From a virus (Duplodnaviria > Heunggongvirae > Uroviricota > Caudoviricetes), in the IMG/VR virus record IMGVR_UViG_2563366999_000003, positions 1 through 23,211 of that record: a stretch of 23,211 nt of DNA, one strand, 5' to 3'. Made by a program: the position numbers and the translations under genes. The first letter of the stretch is position 1. The number at the start of each line of letters is the position of its first letter. The notes beneath the pieces are model-generated. The model saw only the letters and a list, made by a program, of their open reading frames with translations. It did not search any database and had not been told where the DNA came from. Below, one piece after another: positions 445 to 23,211 of this stretch.

Positions 445-4125
<3,681 letters not shown>

Positions 4126-4145
<20 letters not shown>

Positions 4146-5445
4146 TCTCCCGCATATTGCCAGCATGGCCTTTAATGAGCCGCTGATGCTTGAACCCGCC
4201 TATGCGCGGGTTTTCTTTTGTGCGCTTGCAGGCCAGCTTGGGATCAGCCGCCTGACAGATGCGGTGTCCGGTGACAGCCTGACTGCCGGAGAGGCACCCG
4301 CGACGCTGGCGTTATCCGGTGATGATGACGGACCACGACAGGCCCGCAGTTATCAGGTCATGAACGGCATCGCCGTGCTGCCGGTTTCCGGCACGCTGGT
4401 CAGCCGGACGCGGGCGCTGCAGCCGTATTCGGGGATGACCGGTTACAACGGCATTATCGCCCGTCTGCAACAGGCTGCCAGCGATCCGATGGTGGACGGC
4501 ATTCTGCTCGATATGGACACGCCCGGCGGGATGGTGGCGGGGGCATTTGACTGCGCTGACATCATCGCCCGTGTGCGTGACATAAAACCGGTATGGGCGC
4601 TGGCCAACGACATGAACTGCAGTGCAGGTCAGTTGCTTGCCAGTGCCGCCTCCCGGCGTCTGGTCACGCAGACCGCCCGGACAGGCTCCATCGGCGTCAT
4701 GATGGCTCACAGTAATTACGGCGCTGCGCTGGAGAAACAGGGTGTGGAAATCACGCTGATTTACAGCGGCAGCCATAAGGTGGATGGCAACCCCTACAGC
4801 CATCTTCCGGATGATGTCCGGGAAACACTGCAGTCCCGGATGGATGCAACCCGCCGGATGTTTGCGCAGAAGGTGTCGGCATATACCGGCCTGTCCGTGC
4901 AGGCCGTGCTGGATACCGAGGCTGCAGTATACAGCGGTCAGGAGGCCATTGATGCCGGACTGGCTGATGAACTTGTTAACAGCACCGATGCGATCACCGT
5001 CATGCGTGATGCACTGGATGCACGTAAATCCCGTCTCTCAGGAGGGCGAATGACCAAAGAGACTCAATCAACAACTGTTTCTGCCACTGCTTCGCAGGCT
5101 GACGTTACTGACGTGGTTCCAGCGACGGAGGGCGAAAACGCCAGCGCGGCGCAGCCGGACGTGAACGCGCAGATCACCGCAGCGGTTGCGGCAGAAAACA
5201 GCCGCATTATGGGGATCCTCAACTGTGAGGAGGCCCACGGACGTGAAGAACAGGCACGCGTGCTGGCAGAAACCCCCGGAATGACCGTGGAAACGGCCCG
5301 CCGCATTCTGGCCGCAGCACCACAGAGTGCACAGGCGCGCAGTGACACTGCGCTGGATCGTCTGATGCAGGGGGCACCGGCACCGCTGGCTGCAGGTAAC
5401 CCGGCATCCGATGCCGTTAACGATTTGCTGAACACACCAGTGTAA
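4126..5445 (+). CDS. C: Prohead protease C (S49/ClpP-like), GTG start, 439 aa
   Basis: GTG at 4126 preceded by GAGGAGGAG; product VTAELRNLPHIASMAFNEPLMLEPAYARVFF... matches lambda gpC. The track's upstream-extended ORF from 3991 runs in-frame through the B 3' end and is not the real start. Overlaps B by 20 nt. Confidence 0.9.
4840..5445 (+). CDS. nu3: Scaffolding protein Nu3, in-frame internal start within C (same stop)
   Basis: ATG at 4840 is in frame with C (4840-4126 = 714 = 3 x 238) and gives MDATRRMFAQKVSAYTGL..., the position of lambda Nu3 after applying the window offset. Nested C/Nu3 arrangement is established for lambda. Confidence 0.8.
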   Translation: MDATRRMFAQKVSAYTGLSVQAVLDTEAAVYSGQEAIDAGLADELVNSTDAITVMRDALDARKSRLSGGRMTKETQSTTVSATASQADVTDVVPATEGENASAAQPDVNAQITAAVAAENSRIMGILNCEEAHGREEQARVLAETPGMTVETARRILAAAPQSAQARSDTALDRLMQGAPAPLAAGNPASDAVNDLLNTPV

Positions 5446-5804: not shown

Positions 5805-5829
5805 AAAGGCCGCCTTTGCGGCTTTTTTT
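5805..5829 (+). terminator. Hairpin plus T7 run in D-E intergenic region (intrinsic-terminator-like)
   Basis: AAAGGCCGC-CTTT-GCGGC-TTTTTTT: 5-bp GC stem (5809-5813 / 5818-5822) extendable by A:U and G:U pairs, followed by 7 T at 5823-5829. A second T7 run lies immediately before the E start. Confidence 0.55.
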
Positions 5830-13798: not shown

Positions 13799-14542
13799 AT
13801 GACACAGACAGAATCAGCGATTCTGGCGCACGCCCGGCGATGTGCGCCAGCGGAGTCGTGCGGCTTCGTGGTAAGCACGCCGGAGGGGGAAAGATATTTC
13901 CCCTGTGTGAATATCTCCGGTGAGCCGGAGGATTATTTCCGGATGGCTCCGGAGGACTGGCTGCGGGCAGAGATGCAGGGTGAGATTGTGGCGCTGGTCC
14001 ACAGTCATCCCGGTGGTCTGCCCTGGCTGAGTGAGGCTGACCGGCGGCTGCAGGTGCAGAGTGATTTGCCGTGGTGGCTGGTCTGCCGGGGGGAGATTCA
14101 TAAGTTCCGCTGTGTGCCGCATCTCACCGGGCGGCGCTTTGAGCACGGGGTGACGGACTGTTACACACTGTTCCGGGATGCTTACCATCTGGCGGGGATT
14201 GAGATGCCGGACTTTCATCGTGAGGATGACTGGTGGTGTAACGGCCAGAATCTCTATCTGGATAATCTGGAGGCAACGGGGCTGTATCAGGTGCCGTTGT
14301 CAGCGGCGCAGCCGGGCGATGTGCTGCTGTGCTGTTTTGGTTCATCGGTGCCGAATCACACCGCCATTTACTGCGGCGACGGCGAGCTGCTGCACCATAT
14401 TCCTGAACAACTGAGTAAACGAGAGAGGTACACCGACAAATGGCAGCGACGCACACACTCCCTCTGGCGTCACCGGGCATGGCACGCATCTGCCTTTACG
14501 GGGATTTGCAACGATTTGGCCGCCGCATCGACCTTCGTGTGA
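13799..14542 (+). CDS. K: Tail tip assembly protein K (247 aa as called here): N-terminal JAMM/MPN metalloprotease-like domain plus C-terminal NlpC/P60-like domain
   Basis: ORF opens with ATG 13799, 5 nt after the L stop. Contains E19-x-C-G, then H68-S-H70-x7-S78-x2-D81 (complete JAMM motif) and Cys121 (DCYTLF) plus downstream His (NHTAIY) typical of NlpC/P60. From the internal Met49 onward it matches lambda gpK as conventionally annotated. Confidence 0.85.
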   Translation: MTQTESAILAHARRCAPAESCGFVVSTPEGERYFPCVNISGEPEDYFRMAPEDWLRAEMQGEIVALVHSHPGGLPWLSEADRRLQVQSDLPWWLVCRGEIHKFRCVPHLTGRRFEHGVTDCYTLFRDAYHLAGIEMPDFHREDDWWCNGQNLYLDNLEATGLYQVPLSAAQPGDVLLCCFGSSVPNHTAIYCGDGELLHHIPEQLSKRERYTDKWQRRTHSLWRHRAWHASAFTGICNDLAAASTFV

Positions 14543-15081
14543 AAACGGGGGCTGAAGCCATCCGGGCGCTGGCCACACAGCTTCCGTCGTTTCGCCAGAA
14601 ACTGAATGAGGGCTGGTATCAGGTACGGATTGCCGGGCGTGATGCAGGCGAAAATGAATTATCTGCCCGTCTTAATGAACCGCTGGCAAATGGTGCCGTG
14701 ATCCACATCGTACCGCGTCTTGCGGGAGCAAAAAGTGGCGGTGTGTTTCAGGCGGTGCTGGGTGCGGCGTTGATTGCTACGGCAATCTGGATGCCGGGGA
14801 TCAGTATCGCTTTCAGTGACATTCTCTTTTCAATGGGTGCGGCGATGACGCTTGGCGGTGTTGCACAGATGCTGGCACCGAAAGCGAGTACCGCAACAAC
14901 GACCAGCACGGATAACGGAAAGCAGAACACCTATTTCTCATCACTGGATAACATGGTTGCCCAGGGCAATGTTCTGCCCGTTCTGTTCGGTGAAATGCGC
15001 GTGGGGTCACGTGTGGCATCTCAGGAGATCAGTACAGCTGATGAAGGTGATGGTGGTGAAATTGTGGTGATTGGTCGCTGA
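14440..15081 (+). CDS. I: Tail tip assembly protein I (213 aa), ubiquitin-like N-terminus
   Basis: ATG 14440 inside the 3' end of K in another frame (103-nt overlap, as in lambda K/I); MAATHTLPLASPGMARICLYGDLQRFGRRIDLRVKTGAEAIRALATQLP... matches lambda gpI. Confidence 0.92.
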   Translation: MAATHTLPLASPGMARICLYGDLQRFGRRIDLRVKTGAEAIRALATQLPSFRQKLNEGWYQVRIAGRDAGENELSARLNEPLANGAVIHIVPRLAGAKSGGVFQAVLGAALIATAIWMPGISIAFSDILFSMGAAMTLGGVAQMLAPKASTATTTSTDNGKQNTYFSSLDNMVAQGNVLPVLFGEMRVGSRVASQEISTADEGDGGEIVVIGR

Positions 15082-15099
15082 TGGAACATGTTTTATGTG

Positions 15100-15128
15100 A
15101 AACCGCCTGCGGGCGGTTTTGTCGTTTA
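15100..15128 (+). terminator. Hairpin with U-rich tail in I-J intergenic region
   Basis: AAACCGCC-TGCG-GGCGGTTT: exact 8-bp inverted repeat (15100-15107 / 15112-15119) followed by TGTCGTTT. Located 19 nt after the I stop and 14 nt before the J SD. Confidence 0.45.
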
Positions 15129-15141
15129 TGGAGCATGAGGA

Positions 15142-18100
15142 ATGGGTAAAGGCAGCAGTAAGGGGCATACCCCGCGCGAAGCGAAGGACAACCTGAAGTC
15201 CACGCAGTTGCTGAGTGTGATCGATGCCATCAGCGAAGGGCCGATTGAAGGTCCGGTGGATGGGTTAAAAAGCGTGCTGCTGAACAGTACGCCGGTGCTG
15301 GACAGTGAGGGGAATACCAATATCTCCGGCGTCACGGTGGTGTTCCGGGCAGGTGAGCAGGAGCAGACTCCGCCGGAGGGATTTGAATCCTCCGGTTCCG
15401 AGACGGTGCTGGGTACGGAAGTGAAATATGACACGCCGATCACCCGCACCATCACGTCTGCAAATATCGACCGTCTGCGCTTTACCTTCGGTGTGCAGGC
15501 ACTGGTGGAAACCACCTCAAAAGGGGATCGGAATCCGTCGGAAGTCCGCCTGCTGGTTCAGATACAGCGTAACGGTGGCTGGGTGACGGAAAAAGACATC
15601 ACCATTAAGGGCAAAACCACCTCGCAGTATCTGGCCTCGGTGGTGGTGGATAACCTGCCGCCGCGCCCGTTCAGTATCCGGATGCGCAGGATGACACCGG
15701 ACAGCACCACAGACCAGCTGCAGAACAAAACGCTCTGGTCGTCATACACCGAAATCATCGATGTGAAACAGTGCTACCCGAACACGGCACTGGTTGGCGT
15801 ACAGGTGGACTCAGAGCAGTTCGGCAGTCAGCAGGTGAGCCGTAATTATCATCTGCGCGGGCGTATTCTGCAGGTGCCGTCGAACTATAACCCGCAGACG
15901 CGGCAATACAGCGGTATCTGGGACGGAACGTTTAAGCCAGCATACAGCAATAACATGGCCTGGTGTCTGTGGGATATGCTGACCCATCCACGCTACGGCA
16001 TGGGGAAACGTCTTGGTGCGGCGGATGTGGACAAATGGGCGCTGTATGTCATCGGCCAGTACTGCGACCAGTCAGTGCCGGACGGCTTTGGCGGCACGGA
16101 GCCGCGCATCACCTGTAATGCGTACCTGACCACACAGCGCAAGGCGTGGGATGTGCTCAGTGATTTCTGCTCGGCGATGCGCTGTATGCCGGTATGGAAC
16201 GGGCAGACGCTGACGTTCGTGCAGGACCGGCCGTCGGATAAGGTGTGGACCTATAACCGCAGTAATGTGGTGATGCCGGATGATGGCGCGCCGTTCCGCT
16301 ACAGCTTCAGCGCCCTGAAGGACCGCCATAATGCCGTTGAGGTGAACTGGATTGACCCGAACAACGGCTGGGAGACGGCGACAGAGCTTGTTGAAGATAC
16401 GCAGGCCATTGCCCGTTACGGTCGTAATGTCACGAAGATGGATGCCTTTGGCTGTACCAGTCGGGGGCAGGCACACCGAGCCGGGCTGTGGCTGATTAAA
16501 ACGGAACTGCTGGAAACGCAGACCGTGGATTTCAGCGTGGGCGCAGAAGGGCTTCGCCATGTGCCGGGCGATGTTATTGAAATCTGCGATGATGACTATG
16601 CGGGTATCAGCACCGGCGGGCGCGTGCTGGCGGTGAACAGCCAGACCCGGACGCTGACGCTCGACCGTGAAATCACGCTGCCATCCTCCGGTACCACGCT
16701 GATAAGCCTGGTTGACGGAAGCGGCAATCCGGTCAGCGTGGAGGTCCAGTCCGTCACCGACGGCGTGAAGGTAAAAGTGAGCCGTGTTCCTGACGGCGTT
16801 GCAGAATACAGCGTGTGGGGGCTGAAGCTGCCGACGCTGCGCCAGCGCCTGTTCCGCTGTGTGAGTATCCGTGAGAACGATGACGGCACGTATGCCATCA
16901 CTGCCGTGCAGCATGTACCGGAAAAAGAAGCCATCGTGGATAACGGGGCGCACTTTGACGGCGACCAGAGCGGCACGGTGAATGGTGTCACGCCGCCAGC
17001 GGTACAGCACCTGACCGCAGAAGTCACCGCAGACAGCGGGGAATACCAGGTGCTGGCGCGCTGGGACACGCCGAAGGTGGTGAAGGGCGTGAGCTTTATG
17101 CTTCGCCTGACCGTGGCAGCGGATGACGGCAGTGAGCGGCTGGTCAGCACGGTCCGGACGACGGAAACCACATACCGCTTCAGGCAGCTGGCGCTGGGAA
17201 ACTACAGGCTGACAGTCCGGGCGGTAAATGCGTGGGGACAGCAGGGCGATCCGGCGTCGGTATCGTTCCGGATTGCCGCCCCGGCAGCGCCGTCACAGAT
17301 TGAGCTGACGCCGGGCTATTTTCAGATAACCGCCACGCCGCATCTTGCGGTTTATGATCCGACGGTACAGTTTGAGTTCTGGTTTTCTGAAACGAAGATT
17401 TCAGATGTCTCACAGGTGGACAAATCTGCCCGCTATCTTGGTACGGCACTGTACTGGGTAGCCTCCGGCCAGAATATTAAGCCGGGCCATGATTATTATT
17501 TTTATATCCGCAGTGTGAATACCATTGGTAAATCGGCATTCGTGGAGGCTGTCGGCCAGCCGGGTAATAATCCTGAAGAGTATCTCAATTTTTTTGAAGG
17601 GAAAATAAACAGCACCCTGCTGGGGCAGGAGCTGAATGATCGTATTAATGCCTCTGCATTGCGCAGTGAAGTTGAGCAACTGGAGGATGAGGTCAATCAG
17701 CGACTGGAGAGTGATATTGCCGAGGTGACCCAAAAAATCGGGGAAACTGAAAACAGCCTCACGCAGCTGGTTGCTAAAAAAAATGATGAGCAGTCACTGG
17801 CCATATCCCAGGTGAGTCAGAAAGTGGACAACGTCAGTAGCGAACTCACGCAAACGGTCAGTCAGAGTAATGAGGAGAATGCACGCCAGATAGCGCAGGT
17901 TCGTCAGTATGTGGATGAAAAAAGCAGTGAAATCATCTCGACGACAGACAAAAAACTGGGCGAGCAGGAAGCAACAATCCAGCAGATACAAAAGGTTCAG
18001 ACAGACACCAGTAATAACCTGAACAGTATGTGGGCCGTGAAACTGCAGCAGATGCAGGATGGTCGCCTTTACATTGCGGGTATCGGTGCCGGTATTGAGA

Positions 18101-18843
18101 ATACCCCTGACGGTATGCAGAGTCAGGTGCTGCTGGCGGCAGACAGGATTGCGTTCATTAATCCGGAGAACGGTAACACCACTCCAGCACTGGTCACGCA
18201 GGGGGGACAGACGTTTCTCAATGAAGCGCTGATTAAGACCCTTATTGCTCCCACAATTACCAGTGGTGGCAATCCTCCGGCATTTTCCCTGACATCAGAC
18301 GGAAAGCTGACCGCTAAAAATGCGGATATCAGTGGCAGTGTGAATGCGAACTCAGGGACGCTCAACAACGTCACGATAAATGAGAACTGTCAGATTAAGG
18401 GGAAACTGTCCGCCAACCAGATTGAAGGCGATATTGTCAAAACGGTCAGCAAGTCTTTCCCCCGCACGAGCACTTATGCCAGCGGCACCATTACGGTCAC
18501 GATTAGTGATGATCAGAAGTTTGACCGACAGGTCATGATCCCGGCTCTGCTGTTTAAAGGAAGCAGGAAGGAAAATTATGGCAGTAATAATCAACAGTCT
18601 TATGTTTATTCTGTATGCCGTTTGCAGGTAACGAAAAACGGGACAGAAATTTTTAACCAGTCAACAACGGATGCTCCGGCGGTTTTTTCTTCCGTTATTG
18701 ATATGCCTGCGGGGCAGGGAACGTTGACGTTAAAGTTTACGGTCTCTTCTTCAATGGTCAATAACTGGACACCGACAACCAGTATCAGCGATTTGCTTGT
18801 TGTGGTGATGAAGAAATCCACCGCAGGTATCACGATTAGCTGA
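15142..18843 (+). CDS. J: Central tail fibre / host specificity protein J (1233 aa)
   Basis: ATG 15142 preceded by GAGG; N-terminal and central parts ([42 protein letters not shown]...) match lambda gpJ. The product is about 100 aa longer than I recall for lambda J, with an extended coiled-coil segment and a divergent C-terminal region. Confidence 0.95.
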
Positions 18844-18861
18844 ATTTTATAACCCATATAC

Positions 18862-18889
18862 GGGCGCCAGAAATGGCGCCTTTTTTATT
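18862..18889 (+). terminator. Intrinsic terminator downstream of J (tJ-like)
   Basis: GGCGCC-AGAAAT-GGCGCC (self-complementary 6-bp GC stem, 18863-18868 / 18875-18880) followed directly by TTTTTTATT (18881-18889). Confidence 0.7.
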
Positions 18890-18910
18890 GCAGAAAAGCG
18901 AGAGGTAATT

Positions 18911-19510
18911 ATGCGTAAATTATGTGCTGTTATTCTGTCCGCAGTAGTCTGGCTGGTTGCCGCTGGTACGCCAGCGAGCGCAGCAGAGCATCAGTCCACA
19001 CTAAGCGCCGGGTATCTTCAGACCCATACTGATATGCCAGGCAGCGATGACCTGAAGGGCATTAACGTGAAATACCGTTATGAATTTACGGACACGCTGG
19101 GGCTGGTGACGTCATTCAGCTATGCAGGAGACAAGAATCGCCAGCTGACCCGTTACAGCGATACCCGCTGGCATGAAGATTCCGTGCGTAACCGCTGGTT
19201 CAGCGTGATGGCGGGTCCGTCTGTACGCGTGAATGAATGGTTCAGTGCGTATGCGATGGCGGGTGTGGCTTACAGCCGTGTGTCGACCTTCTCCGGGGAT
19301 TATCTGCAGGTGACCGACAGCAAGGGGAAAACGCACGATGTGCTGACCGGAAGTGATGACGCTCGCCACAGTAACACCTCTATGGCGTGGGGAGCTGGCG
19401 TGCAGTTTAACCCGACCGAATCGGTGGCCATTGATGTCGCTTATGAAGGTTCCGGCAGTGGCGACTGGCGCACTGACAGTTTCATCGTAGGTGTCGGTTA
19501 TAAATTCTGA
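18911..19510 (+). CDS. lom: Lom outer-membrane protein (Ail/Lom/OmpX/PagC family beta-barrel), lysogenic-conversion moron
   Basis: ATG 18911 preceded by GAGAGG; signal peptide MRKLCAVILSAVVWLVAAGTPASA followed by AEHQSTLSAGY...; ends with the typical C-terminal aromatic beta-strand (VGVGYKF). Matches lambda Lom. Confidence 0.93.
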   Translation: MRKLCAVILSAVVWLVAAGTPASAAEHQSTLSAGYLQTHTDMPGSDDLKGINVKYRYEFTDTLGLVTSFSYAGDKNRQLTRYSDTRWHEDSVRNRWFSVMAGPSVRVNEWFSAYAMAGVAYSRVSTFSGDYLQVTDSKGKTHDVLTGSDDARHSNTSMAWGAGVQFNPTESVAIDVAYEGSGSGDWRTDSFIVGVGYKF

Positions 19511-19530
19511 TTAGTAGTACAGCGTGATGA

Positions 19531-19558
19531 AAGCCCGCCGGTTCAGGCGGGCTTTTTT
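19531..19558 (+). terminator. Intrinsic terminator downstream of lom
   Basis: GCCCGCC-GGTTCA-GGCGGGC (7-bp GC-rich stem 19533-19539 / 19546-19552) followed by TTTTTT (19553-19558), 21 nt after the lom stop. Confidence 0.75.
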
Positions 19559-19569
19559 GTGGGGTGAAT

Positions 19570-22500
19570 ATGACGGTTAAGATTTCAGGTGTACTGAAAG
19601 ATGGAGCAGGCAAACCGGTACAAAACTGCACCATTCAGCTAAAGGCCAGACGCAACAGCACCACGGTGGTGGTGAACACGGTGGCCTCAGAAAATCCGGA
19701 TGAAGCCGGGCGTTATAGTATGGACGTTGAGTATGGCCAGTACAGCGTCACCCTGCTGGTTGAAGGTTTTCCGCCTTCGCATGCCGGGACCATCACAGTG
19801 TATGAGGATTCAAAGCCGGGTACGCTGAATGATTTTCTCGGCGCAATGACGGAGGATGATGCCCGTCCGGAGGCACTGCGCCGTTTTGAACTGATGGTGG
19901 AAGAGGTGGCGCGTAACGCGTCCGCAGTGGCACAGAATGCGGAAGCCGCGAAGAAGTCAGCCAGCGATGCCAGCACATCTGCCAGTGAGGCGGAAACCCA
20001 TGCGACTGATGCTGCAGACTCAGCACGCGCAGCCAGCACGTCAGCCGGACAGGCTGCATCATCTGCTCAGTCAGCATCTTCCAGCGCAGGAACAGCATCA
20101 ACAAAGGCCACTGAAGCCTCAAAAAGTGCTGCCGCTGCAGAGTCCTCAAAAAGTGCGGCGGCCACCAGTGCCAGTGCCGCGAAAACGTCAGAAACGAACG
20201 CGGCAGCGTCACAACAATCCGCAGCCACCTCAGCATCCACCGCGACCACGAAAGCGTCAGACGCTGCCACCTCAGCCCGGGATGCGGCGGCTTCAAAAGA
20301 GGCGGCAAAATCATCAGAAACGAGCGCAGCCTCGAGCGCCAGTAGTGCAGCTTCCTCGGCTACGGCGGCAGGAAATTCCGCGAAGGCGGCAAAAACGTCC
20401 GAGACGAACGCCAGGGCTTCTGAAACGGCAGCGGAACAGAGTGCCTCCGCAGCAGCAGACTCAAAAACAGCGGCTGCGTCGTCTGCCAGTGCCGCGTCAA
20501 CAAGTGCCGGGCAGGCCTCAGCCAGTGCCACCGCCGCCGGGAAATCGGCGGAAAGCGCGTCGTCATCAGCGACAACAGCTACCGCAAAAGCGACTGAGGC
20601 GACGAATCAGGCTACAGCTGCTAAAAATTCAGCATCGGCAGCAAAATCCTCTGAAACAAATGCAAAGACTTCAGAAGACAATGCCGCTTCCTCTAAGGCG
20701 GCAGCTGCTGAATCTGCAAGTTCTGCGTCTGCATCAGCCACCTCGGCGTCCGCTTCAAAAGATGAGGCGATCAGGCAGGCGTCAGCTGCGAAGGGTAGTG
20801 CTTCAACGGCATCCACGAAAGCAACAGAGGCGGCAGGCAGTGCGACGGCTGCATCTCAGAGCAAAACTGCTGCTGAATCCGCTGCGACCCGTGCGGAAGC
20901 TGCTGCTGATCGTGCTGAAGAGATTGCCGGTGCGGTTGCGATGGAAGACGCAAGCCTTACCACTAAAGGTGTTGTGAAACTTAGCAGTGCTGTCGACAGC
21001 ACCAGTGAATCGCTGGCCGCAACGCCAAAGGCAGTTAAAGCAGTCAATGACAATGCGAACAGCAGGGTGCCATCTGACCGAAAAATTAACGGGAAAGCAC
21101 TGACTGGGGATATCACATTAACGCCGAAAGATATTGGTACTTTAAATTCAGTAACGATGTCTTTCTCTGGCGGGGCTGGGTGGTTCAAACTGGCTACGGT
21201 TACCATGCCACAAGCGAGTTCCATCGTTTACATCACATTGATTGGTGGTGCCGGATACAACGTCGGCTCCCCACAGCAGGCAGGTATTTCAGAACTGGTT
21301 CTACGAGCAGGCAATGGAAACCCCAAAGGGATTACCGGAGCTTTGTGGAAGCGTACAGCCGTCGGATTAACGAATTTCGCCTGGATCAACACATCCGGCG
21401 ATACATATGATATTTACGTTGAGACTGGCAATTATGCGACGAGTGTAAATATCCATTGGGATTGTACTGCAAATGCGTCAGTTTCTGTTTATACATCGCC
21501 AGCCTATTCAGCGAGTAAGCCTTCCGGCGTTACCGATGGTGTTGTTTATACGATGTATAGCTCACATCAGAAACCTACACCATCAGATATTGGAGCACTG
21601 CCAACAACCGGAGGAACAGTTTCAGGTCCGTTGTCTGTTACTGGTGGGATCACCGGGGCACTGAAGGGGAACGCCGATACCGCGACGAAACTTGCGGCAG
21701 CCAAAAAAATTAACGGTGTTAAGTTTGATGGCTCGGCGGATATTAATCTCACGCCGGAAAATATTGGTGCATTTGCCCTACGTGCGACGGGGGCTTATGC
21801 GGATTCGGATGGAGCCGTTCCGTGGAATGCTGAATCCGGTGCATATAATGTCACGCGTTCTGGCGACTCCTGTCTTGTTGCAAACTTTTATACCGGTGTG
21901 GGGAGTTGCCAGACTCTCCAGATTCGCGCTCATTACAAGAATGGCGGTCTGTTTTACCGTTCTTCGCGTGATGGTTATGGCTTTGAGGAAGACTGGACTC
22001 AGATTTATACCAAAAAAGACAGCATTCCGGGAGTAAATACGACAGGTAACCAGAACACTACGGGTAATGCGGCAACAGCTACAAAACTACAGACGGCAAG
22101 AACTATCGGCGGTGTGAGCTTTGATGGTACTGCGAATATTAACTTGCCTGGTGTTAATACGACTGGTAACCAGAGCACTACAGGCAATGCAGCTACTGCC
22201 ACGAAGTTGCAGACAGCGCGTACTATTAATGGCGTGTCGTTTGACGGTTCGGCAAATATTTCTCTGTCACCAGCAAATATTGGTTGCCCGGCATCTCCAA
22301 CTGGCTGGTTAGGCACAGGGAGTAATGGTGCATCAATAACAACGGCTCAGTTAGTGACGATATTGCAGAATAATGGTGCCTTCAATACAAAAGCATGGGT
22401 GGCACGCTGTGCCTGGGCATACGCTGACAGCGCCTCCATACCAGACAGTGAAACAGGCTGCGGCATTATTCCACTGGCGGGGGCGGTGATAGAAGTATTC

Positions 22501-23211
22501 AGCCACAGTGCAACTTATTACACCATTCGAATAACAACAGCCACGACGACAAGTGTCTCTGGCGCACTCACTAATGCGGAATTTATCTATGTGTTTAATG
22601 GCACAGCTTATTCCCCCGGATGGCGTCGTGCACTGAACACAAAGAAACTGCCCACACCGCTTGAAATTGGCGCTTACAGCATATCGGAGATTAACCAACT
22701 CAATAAAAGTTTTATCACGTCATCAAAACTCGAAGGCGGCTCGTTAGATGCAAACTTCCAGACGTTAAGTTGTTATTATTTGCAAATATTCGACATTCAG
22801 ACAACAACCGATAGTCCTAACATGTTCGTAAGTCCGGTTGCTGGTTACAACATGGTATTTCGTTCGACTTCATCCCGTCGATACAAGACGGATATCGAGT
22901 CTTTAGAGAACAGGTACGCGGACGAGTTGTTGAAACTTCGTCCTGTATGGTATCGCTCGACTTGTGAAAGGGACAGAAAGGACTGGGGACATTATGGCCT
23001 TATTGCAGAAGAAGTCGGAGAGATAGCACCGCAATATGTTCACTGGCGTCCTCTTACAGACGAGGATGATCCAGGTATAGCGTCTGATAATGGGATGGTT
23101 GCAGAAGGCGTGATGTATGACCGTCTGGTTGTTCCACTCATTCATCATATTCAGAAACTGACAAAAAGGGTTGAGGAGCTTGAAGCAAAGTTAAAGCTAT
23201 CCGAGCTATAA
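19570..23211 (+). CDS. stf: Side tail fibre protein Stf (1213 aa from ATG 19570): lambda-Stf-like N-terminus, Ala/Ser-rich shaft, fibre repeats, divergent distal tip, C-terminal intramolecular-chaperone-like autoprocessing domain
   Basis: N-terminus MTVKISGVLKDGAGKPVQNCTIQLKARRNSTTVVVNTVASENPDEAGRYSMDVEYGQYSV matches lambda Stf. ATG 19570 has GGGG 5 nt upstream; an in-frame GTG at 19564 would add 2 aa. Uninterrupted ORF to the TAA at the last 3 nt of the window. C-terminal about 115 aa resemble endosialidase-type intramolecular chaperone (peptidase S74) domains. Confidence 0.92.
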   Translation: MTVKISGVLKDGAGKPVQNCTIQLKARRNSTTVVVNTVASENPDEAGRYSMDVEYGQYSVTLLVEGFPPSHAGTITVYEDSKPGTLNDFLGAMTEDDARPEALRRFELMVEEVARNASAVAQNAEAAKKSASDASTSASEAETHATDAADSARAASTSAGQAASSAQSASSSAGTASTKATEASKSAAAAESSKSAAATSASAAKTSETNAAASQQSAATSASTATTKASDAATSARDAAASKEAAKSSETSAASSASSAASSATAAGNSAKAAKTSETNARASETAAEQSASAAADSKTAAASSASAASTSAGQASASATAAGKSAESASSSATTATAKATEATNQATAAKNSASAAKSSETNAKTSEDNAASSKAAAAESASSASASATSASASKDEAIRQASAAKGSASTASTKATEAAGSATAASQSKTAAESAATRAEAAADRAEEIAGAVAMEDASLTTKGVVKLSSAVDSTSESLAATPKAVKAVNDNANSRVPSDRKINGKALTGDITLTPKDIGTLNSVTMSFSGGAGWFKLATVTMPQASSIVYITLIGGAGYNVGSPQQAGISELVLRAGNGNPKGITGALWKRTAVGLTNFAWINTSGDTYDIYVETGNYATSVNIHWDCTANASVSVYTSPAYSASKPSGVTDGVVYTMYSSHQKPTPSDIGALPTTGGTVSGPLSVTGGITGALKGNADTATKLAAAKKINGVKFDGSADINLTPENIGAFALRATGAYADSDGAVPWNAESGAYNVTRSGDSCLVANFYTGVGSCQTLQIRAHYKNGGLFYRSSRDGYGFEEDWTQIYTKKDSIPGVNTTGNQNTTGNAATATKLQTARTIGGVSFDGTANINLPGVNTTGNQSTTGNAATATKLQTARTINGVSFDGSANISLSPANIGCPASPTGWLGTGSNGASITTAQLVTILQNNGAFNTKAWVARCAWAYADSASIPDSETGCGIIPLAGAVIEVFSHSATYYTIRITTATTTSVSGALTNAEFIYVFNGTAYSPGWRRALNTKKLPTPLEIGAYSISEINQLNKSFITSSKLEGGSLDANFQTLSCYYLQIFDIQTTTDSPNMFVSPVAGYNMVFRSTSSRRYKTDIESLENRYADELLKLRPVWYRSTCERDRKDWGHYGLIAEEVGEIAPQYVHWRPLTDEDDPGIASDNGMVAEGVMYDRLVVPLIHHIQKLTKRVEELEAKLKLSEL
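19915..20930 (+). repeat. Low-complexity Ala/Ser/Thr/Lys-rich periodic region of stf (predicted helical shaft)
   Basis: About 340 codons dominated by A, S, T, K, E. The motif AAK(T/S)SET(N/S)A recurs with its K codon at 20182, 20308, 20392 and 20644, i.e. spacings of 126, 84 and 252 nt, all multiples of 42 nt (14 codons). Confidence 0.8.
22030..22269 (+). repeat. Two tandem 120-nt (40-codon) tail-fibre repeats within stf
   Basis: Unit 1 22030-22149 (GVNTTGNQNTTGNAATATKLQTARTIGGVSFDGTANINLP) and unit 2 22150-22269 (GVNTTGNQSTTGNAATATKLQTARTINGVSFDGSANISLS). A more degenerate copy lies upstream (GNADTATKLAAAKKINGVKFDGSADINLTPENIGA, about 21660-21780). Confidence 0.9.

Follow-up and report, generated by a model that had tools for sequence, protein, structure and literature searches.

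The window analysed here (the whole stretch of DNA, 23,211 nt) is the left arm of a lambda-like prophage, a + strand late operon carrying the head and tail genes. The list of open reading frames gives an unbroken + strand chain of lambda type, comprising the large terminase subunit, portal, C/Nu3, D, E, the tail genes, J, lom and stf. This order, running on one strand from terminase to tail fibres, is that of lambda, as in a lambda-type, Q-antiterminated late operon; the positions of the Q gene, pR′ and tR′ fall beyond the 23 kb of the window. Comparison with lambda-like phages and E. coli prophages gave ~94% identity across 86–93% of the window. Of 5426 complete E. coli genomes, 4915 (~90%) matched the 1.6-kb J-lom-stf stretch, and 2298 contained it in full. 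As a lambdoid prophage arm, the window is ordinary and of a very common type.

The J gene (15142–18843, + strand) encodes a tail-tip host-specificity protein of 1233 aa, compared with 1132 aa in lambda. Pfam matches to PF24421, PF24801 and PF12421 (the C-terminal receptor-binding domain) place tip-attachment domains in the protein. Downstream, lom (18911–19510, + strand) encodes a 199-aa precursor of an Ail/Lom-family outer-membrane beta-barrel. The product matched PF06316 (Ail_Lom) over profile positions 1–199 of 199 (E 9.5e-122, 404.5 bits against a cut-off of 23), and this full-length match bears out the assignment to the Ail family made in the initial annotation. The N-terminus, read by eye from the translation, resembles a typical signal peptide (approximately residues 1–24, MRKLCAVILSAVVWLVAAGTPASA/AE). 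A Shine-Dalgarno sequence, GAGAGG, was read at 18900–18905 (+ strand), 5 nt before the ATG. The G+C content of lom (0.550) is close to that of J (0.549) and of the window (0.557), with stf at 0.518.

The side tail fibre gene stf begins with the ATG at 19570 (+ strand) and runs to 23211, with a ribosome-binding site (GGGG) at 19561–19564 on the same strand. Its 1213-aa product has a PF08400 N-terminal domain (E 2e-72) and a C-terminal Peptidase_S74 domain, an intramolecular chaperone domain. This single open reading frame ends at the last base of the window; in lambda, by contrast, stf is accompanied by a separate tfa. The J-lom spacer is 67 nt long, the length originally given, and the lom-stf spacer is 59 nt.

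Each of the two spacers contains a hairpin with the geometry of an intrinsic terminator, namely a G+C-rich stem-loop with a T-run on the transcribed strand. T1 (18862–18889, + strand) follows J and consists of the stem-loop GGGCGCCA-GAAA-TGGCGCCT at 18862–18881 followed by TTTTTTATT, with 8 stem pairs, of which 6 are G-C, and a T6 run. T2 (19529–19558, + strand) follows lom and has the core GCCCGCC-GGTTCA-GGCGGGC at 19533–19552, that is, 7 G-C pairs around a 6-nt loop; A-U pairs extend the stem to 19529–19556 and a T6 run occupies 19553–19558. Folded alone, T1 gave -15.7 kcal/mol (z -3.82) and T2 gave -21.2 kcal/mol (z -4.25), and in neither case did any of 200 shuffled sequences fold as well. 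With these free energies, the terminator hairpins proposed after J and after lom are real. No T-run follows T1 or T2 on the minus strand. A standard terminator scan detected T1 and missed T2, probably because the stem of T2 was extended into its T-run and then failed the scan's own tail rule. Rfam returned no family at its gathering score anywhere in the window, and the weak matches at T1 and T2 (e.g. Trp_leader), with E values of 0.09 or worse, were set aside as generic terminator look-alikes.

A strict scan, demanding a perfect uninterrupted stem, a hairpin energy of -10 kcal/mol or lower and TTTT directly after the hairpin, recovered T2 and was applied to the whole window. It returned five sites, every one of them on the + strand, compared with 0.08 ± 0.28 sites per strand in 60 dinucleotide shuffles. 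T1 and T2 rank highest in stability among them. The others are a terminator-like hairpin in the I-J spacer (15100–15127, + strand; -16.1 kcal/mol, z -3.99), followed by TTTTGTCGTTT; one in the D-E spacer (5808–5829, + strand; -12.6 kcal/mol, z -2.72), followed by T7; and an intragenic hairpin near the start of the C (protease/scaffold) gene (4193–4219, + strand; AACCCGCC-TATGCG-CGGGTT followed by TTCTTTT; -12.5 kcal/mol), which has a weak z-score of -1.71. All five have 4–7 T immediately after the hairpin, and a hairpin with a T-run is present in every spacer of the operon of at least 28 nt (D-E, I-J, J-lom and lom-stf). Because terminator-like hairpins flank J too, J is as ‘insulated’ as lom by the reasoning of the initial annotation.

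The corresponding region of lambda (J-lom-stf, the last also called orf-401; NC_001416, 18903–19650) has the same gene order and the same spacers as the window. Hairpins with T-runs are found in lambda at D-E, E-FI, I-J, J-lom and lom-stf, so that the I-J and D-E hairpins of the window are also present there. The lambda T2, CAGCCCGCCGGAACCGGTGGGCTTTTTTGTGGGGTGAATATG after lom, is almost identical to that of the window. In contrast, the lambda T1 (CGTCCG-GGAA-CGGGCG, then TTTTATTAT) is weak, at -9.7 kcal/mol (z -1.84) compared with -15.7 for the window T1, and its tail contains a fair -10-like TATTAT where the window has TATTGC. The Lom protein of the window is ~45% identical to lambda Lom (represented among our loci by L084, which is lambda DNA), yet the two types of lom allele have a nearly identical 3′ end and T2.

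Comparison with relatives showed that lom is an optional insert between J and stf, as had been proposed. A junction in which J is followed by T1 and then directly by stf was found in at least 83 viral contigs (IMG/VR) and in two Escherichia genomes (L103 and L104). Among 80 of these lom-less contigs that were fetched, the N-terminus of stf was present in 80, the C-terminus of J in 79 and any match to lom in one. In the lom-less form, the J stop codon is followed by the T1 hairpin-TTTTTTATT|TGTGGAGTGARTATG(stf), the stf side beginning TGTGG. In the lom-bearing form the same T1 hairpin-TTTTTTATT is joined to GCAGAAAAGCGAGAGGTAATTATG (beginning GCAG), then to lom, and the T2 hairpin GGGCTTTTT is joined to TGTGGRGTGRRTATG(stf). 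Both ends of the segment gained or lost therefore fall inside T-runs, those of T1 and T2. The unit so defined (18890–19557, + strand, ~668 bp, its ends ambiguous by 1–2 T) begins with a 21-nt leader in which the ribosome-binding site lies, followed by lom and T2; the stf-side segment starts at 19559 in the window. In every arrangement seen, the start codon of stf lies 11–15 nt past a terminator T-run.

Moreover, matching J 3′ flanks (the same J allele over the 66 nt up to the hairpin) were found both with and without lom. Because T1 is kept at the lom-less junctions, and because the same J flanks occur in both states, T1 belongs to the J-stf junction and is a feature independent of lom, whereas T2 is part of the lom unit. 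The description of lom as bracketed by terminators consequently holds in that two canonical, co-oriented terminators flank the gene, the second lying within the unit, and fails in so far as T1 is not specific to lom; nor can T1 serve as a lom-specific insulator, given that in the lom-less relatives the same hairpin stands directly before stf. The lom-bearing form is the commoner (at least 597 Lom matches and at least 119 junction matches versus 83 lom-less matches). The junction alone fits both insertion and deletion of lom and cannot decide between them. At the first codons of stf, every lom-less junction seen (L119–L198) belongs to a single 5′ allele type (ATGGCAGTACAGATTTC.., MAVQISG; GTAAAG at one locus), and the stf alleles of the lom-bearing loci L001–L080 are mostly MAVKISG or MAAVKISG. 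This linkage suggests that the lom-less state arose once and later spread across J alleles through recombination at T1.

The evolution of the two hairpins was examined in 80 viral contigs encoding a Lom 91–97% identical to that of the window, together with ~200 further loci. The T1 stem occurs in the forms GCGCC/GGCGC, GCGTC/GACGC and GCACC/GGTGC, as well as in wobble variants and one variant with a different loop. Across 22 distinct variants the stem positions are 100% paired, three pairs showing compensatory changes, and none of 500 shuffles reached the observed covariation. Two double compensatory changes are independent (GC to AU at pair 5 and CG to UA at pair 6), and a third occurs in L100. 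The pairing of T1 has thus been maintained in evolution and is under selection. T2 varies by single wobble-compatible changes only, without compensatory changes. Between the T-run of T1 and the ATG of lom, 26 of the 27 distinct upstream variants (the window plus the 80 loci) have one and the same sequence, and the 27th has a shortened T-tail.

In L093-type loci T2 is replaced by a non-homologous terminator, GAAGCCCGTGGCGTCACTGCTGCGGGCTTTTTTT (-20.5 kcal/mol, z -3.99). These loci have a different lom 3′ end, a 190-nt spacer and the terminator just before a different stf allele. A lom allele with another C-terminal end (..GYRF) and a lom-stf spacer of ~150–190 nt is shared by L009, L045, L048, L080 and L093, in which the spacer contains an extra hairpin (GCAGTTCACCCCATAAGG-type) ahead of the non-homologous terminator and the different stf allele.

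We searched for a promoter that might serve lom. A scan for the sigma-70 consensus found no + strand site in 14000–23211, and a rough position-weight scan of 18000–18910 gave nothing convincing. The best weight-matrix match, TTGAGA-17-CAGAGT at 18095, lies ~800 nt upstream and has a poor -10 element. Candidate -10 elements picked by eye, namely TATAAC (18848–18853), the T1 tail and AATTAT over the ATG, were rejected for a bad -35 element, the lack of a T at -7 or a start inside lom. The 29 nt from the T1 hairpin to the ATG (18882–18910) are too few for a promoter whose transcript would still include the ribosome-binding site. The gain/loss unit itself, with a leader of just 21 nt, likewise offers no space for a promoter of its own. 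The earlier remark that no sigma-70 promoter is visible in the J-lom spacer is in agreement with both scans. The accompanying suggestion of a lysogenic promoter inside the 3′ end of J is not borne out, since no convincing site was found there and T1 would stop such a transcript before it reached lom. A promoter in J also contradicts the idea of insulation, because its transcripts would meet T1 before lom. Overlap of T1 with a promoter that departs from the consensus or depends on an activator may nevertheless occur.

Morons, as defined by Juhala and Hendrix from HK97 and HK022 (e.g. HK97 gene 15), are extra DNA separating genes that are neighbours in related phages; they have their own promoter, their own terminator and a deviant G+C content and are expressed from the repressed prophage (PMC3594210, Cumby et al. 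2012). The lom unit is such extra DNA, precisely bounded by comparison with L103, L104 and 83 IMG/VR contigs, and has its own factor-independent terminator downstream, T2, inside the unit. However, no promoter could be recognised within the unit, with its 21 nt before the ATG, and its G+C content is not deviant. Like the HK97 and HK022 morons, the lom unit lies within the tail-gene part of the late operon, here between J and stf, and carries its own terminator; unlike them, it has no recognisable promoter, is of ordinary G+C content and sits directly behind a resident terminator. Hence, of the designation ‘insulated moron’, the extra DNA and the terminator stand, while the promoter and deviant composition do not, and the upstream half of the insulation is resident at the J-stf junction.

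Reports on the expression of lom differ. The lambda gene has been reported to be expressed from the prophage and is treated as a moron (PMC7067206, PMC3594210); in a phi24B lysogen, induction made no difference to the expression of lom (PMC3342100). In one microarray study lom was not detected in a lysogen, and its authors state that little is known about the lom promoter (PMC2147009). Our literature search found no mapped lom transcription start or 3′ end and no account of T1, T2 or the lom-less junction. With an efficient T1 and a promoter-less unit, lom should be silent in lysogens, which conflicts with the reported prophage expression.

Taken as a whole, the explanation that we favour, and regard as probable, is that T1 and T2 belong to a set of intrinsic terminators, all facing the same way, in the longer spacers of the late operon (D-E, I-J, J-lom and lom-stf). 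We infer from the sequence that both would terminate unmodified polymerase, and we further infer that Q would override them. During lytic growth, Q-modified polymerase from pR′ would ignore T1 and T2, placing J, lom and stf on one long late mRNA. In the literature, polymerase loaded with Q passes termination sites unaffected for thousands of base pairs (PMC9388147), terminators are read through by Q-loaded polymerase in lytic growth (PMC9388147, PMC7547250, PMC10695390), and the late genes are transcribed from pR′ as one 27-kb mRNA, with lom, stf and tfa non-essential (PMC10695390). In the lysogen, the same hairpins would stop unmodified polymerase arising from leak-through at tR′ or from spurious intragenic starts. 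The lom unit would be optional cargo placed right behind the T-run of the resident T1 and bringing T2 with it, and T2 would restore for stf what T1 provides in lom-less phages, so that stf would always stand just after a terminator. Consistent with this, the corresponding position ahead of a different stf allele is taken by a terminator of non-homologous sequence. Termination is favoured as the selected property because of the T-runs, the strand bias and the compensatory changes. Weighing against this explanation are the weak T1 of lambda and the reports that lambda lom is expressed from the prophage.

The insulation originally envisaged, in which T1 and T2 evolved as a pair to insulate lom, T1 keeps late-operon read-through out of the gene, a lysogenic promoter inside the 3′ end of J drives it and T2 ends the transcript before stf, agrees with the reality of both terminators, with their position on either side of lom and with the location of T2 in the gain/loss unit, as well as with the literature describing lom as a prophage-expressed moron (PMC7067206, PMC3594210). 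We nevertheless consider it quite unlikely. At least 85 junctions without lom have T1 in unchanged form, J is flanked by similar terminators and D is followed by one, and a promoter in J, being upstream of T1, would be terminated by T1. Furthermore, 14000–23211 holds no promoter-like site on the + strand, the best weight-matrix match being the distant one with the poor -10, and the same J 3′ ends are found with and without lom, so that a promoter there would not be lom's own.

The hairpins might instead act mainly after transcription, as 3′-end barriers to exonucleases on cut, Q-antiterminated polycistronic mRNA, with termination incidental; the D, I, J, lom and stf segments would then differ in stability and hence in protein ratio. 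Their position exactly at gene ends in every spacer of at least 28 nt and their conservation in lambda would suit such a role, and the selected pairing of T1 would serve either function. A stabiliser, however, needs no T-run, yet all five hairpins have 4–7 T and none lies on the other strand, and we hold this account, taken as the main function, to be doubtful; protection of this kind and termination of unmodified polymerase can both hold. It is very improbable that the hairpins are primarily recombination boundaries for the exchange of J, lom and stf alleles, without a role in transcription. Such exchange would explain why several distinct J 3′ ends join one essentially invariant T1-to-lom leader, why lom alleles only ~45% identical share nearly the same 3′ end and T2, and why the gain/loss unit ends in T-runs. 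However, the compensatory substitutions in T1 preserve pairing in RNA or DNA rather than sequence identity, and identity is what a patch of homology would require. Before another stf allele the same role is filled by a non-homologous terminator, and all five hairpins lie on one strand. Protection of mRNA 3′ ends and recombination at module boundaries are possible alongside termination and do not exclude it.

We give rather little weight to a more speculative reading. A promoter-less lom unit would ride on the resident terminator, and the prophage would obtain Lom through leaky or regulated, attenuator-like read-through of T1 or from an unconventional promoter overlapping T1; the T-runs of late-operon terminators would be preferred junctions for the gain and loss of cargo in lambdoid phages. 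If this were true, each insertion of cargo at a T-run would automatically keep a terminator before the next structural gene.

Among known systems, T1 and T2 resemble tR′ and the downstream sites read through under Q in their intrinsic-terminator geometry and in being co-oriented with transcription from pR′. The terminator tR′ is experimentally characterised, whereas the literature search found no experimental mapping for T1, T2 or the D-E and I-J hairpins. The terminator-insulator at the end of Tn916 (PMC11658703) is similar in blocking outside transcription and in being overridden by dedicated antitermination. Tn916 is a different element with a different antiterminator, and the likeness is an analogy only.

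The layout is the ordinary, long-known J-lom-stf architecture of the lambda late operon in a relative, and as such is already known; the lom unit reveals no new kind of element. The new detail is modest, consisting of the exact gain/loss unit and the lack of a promoter in it. The value of the analysis is mainly corrective, since the upstream terminator is not a lom device but a standing feature of the J-stf junction and of the late operon. As lom is a classic lysogenic-conversion gene, a unit with a terminator and without a visible promoter sharpens the old question of where lom transcription starts in the lysogen.

Several loci required separate treatment. A search of genome contigs with the N-terminus of stf was discarded as a comparison set, as it returned mostly contaminant lambda DNA in unrelated taxa, only L103 and L104 being informative. 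Lambda-type J-lom-stf DNA (~88% identical to the N-terminal part of the window stf) was present in L084–L092, L094–L102, L106–L108, L110, L114, L115 and L117, which are assemblies, mostly as low-coverage contigs, of unrelated organisms including Leeuwenhoekiella, Shewanella, Desulfosporosinus, Oceanobacillus, Kitasatospora and Bradyrhizobium. This DNA is almost certainly contamination of public genomes with lambda control or ladder DNA.

An apparent third hairpin before stf proved to be the end of an IS200-like element inserted after T2. In L035, L046 (~3640–4370), L059 and L064 this element parts the T2 T-run (..GGGCTTTTTTGTG) from the ribosome-binding site of stf and puts ~0.7 kb between T2 and stf; it has terminal hairpins and a transposase beginning MGNEKSLAHTRWNCK. 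Likewise, the unrelated sequence upstream of T1 in L005 had been taken as a sign that T1 travels with lom and was traced to an IS3-family insertion with a deletion. At 1700–2935 of that locus an IS3-family element (rve and HTH_21 domains) replaces the region from the tail-tube gene V through the end of J, and T1-lom-T2-stf is intact in this decayed prophage. Two copies of the J 3′ end, T1 and lom appeared 1.5 kb apart in L236 (~4950), with an N at the join inside T2; rather than a tandem duplication, the double lom probably reflects two prophages wrongly joined during scaffolding. Finally, in the E. coli chromosomes L082 and L109 (~1340–2935) an insertion of ~1.2 kb splits lom, such that 1.19 kb separates residues 69–141 from residues 138–199; no match to the first 68 residues was found. 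This arrangement resembles the IS5-disrupted lomR of the K-12 Rac prophage.
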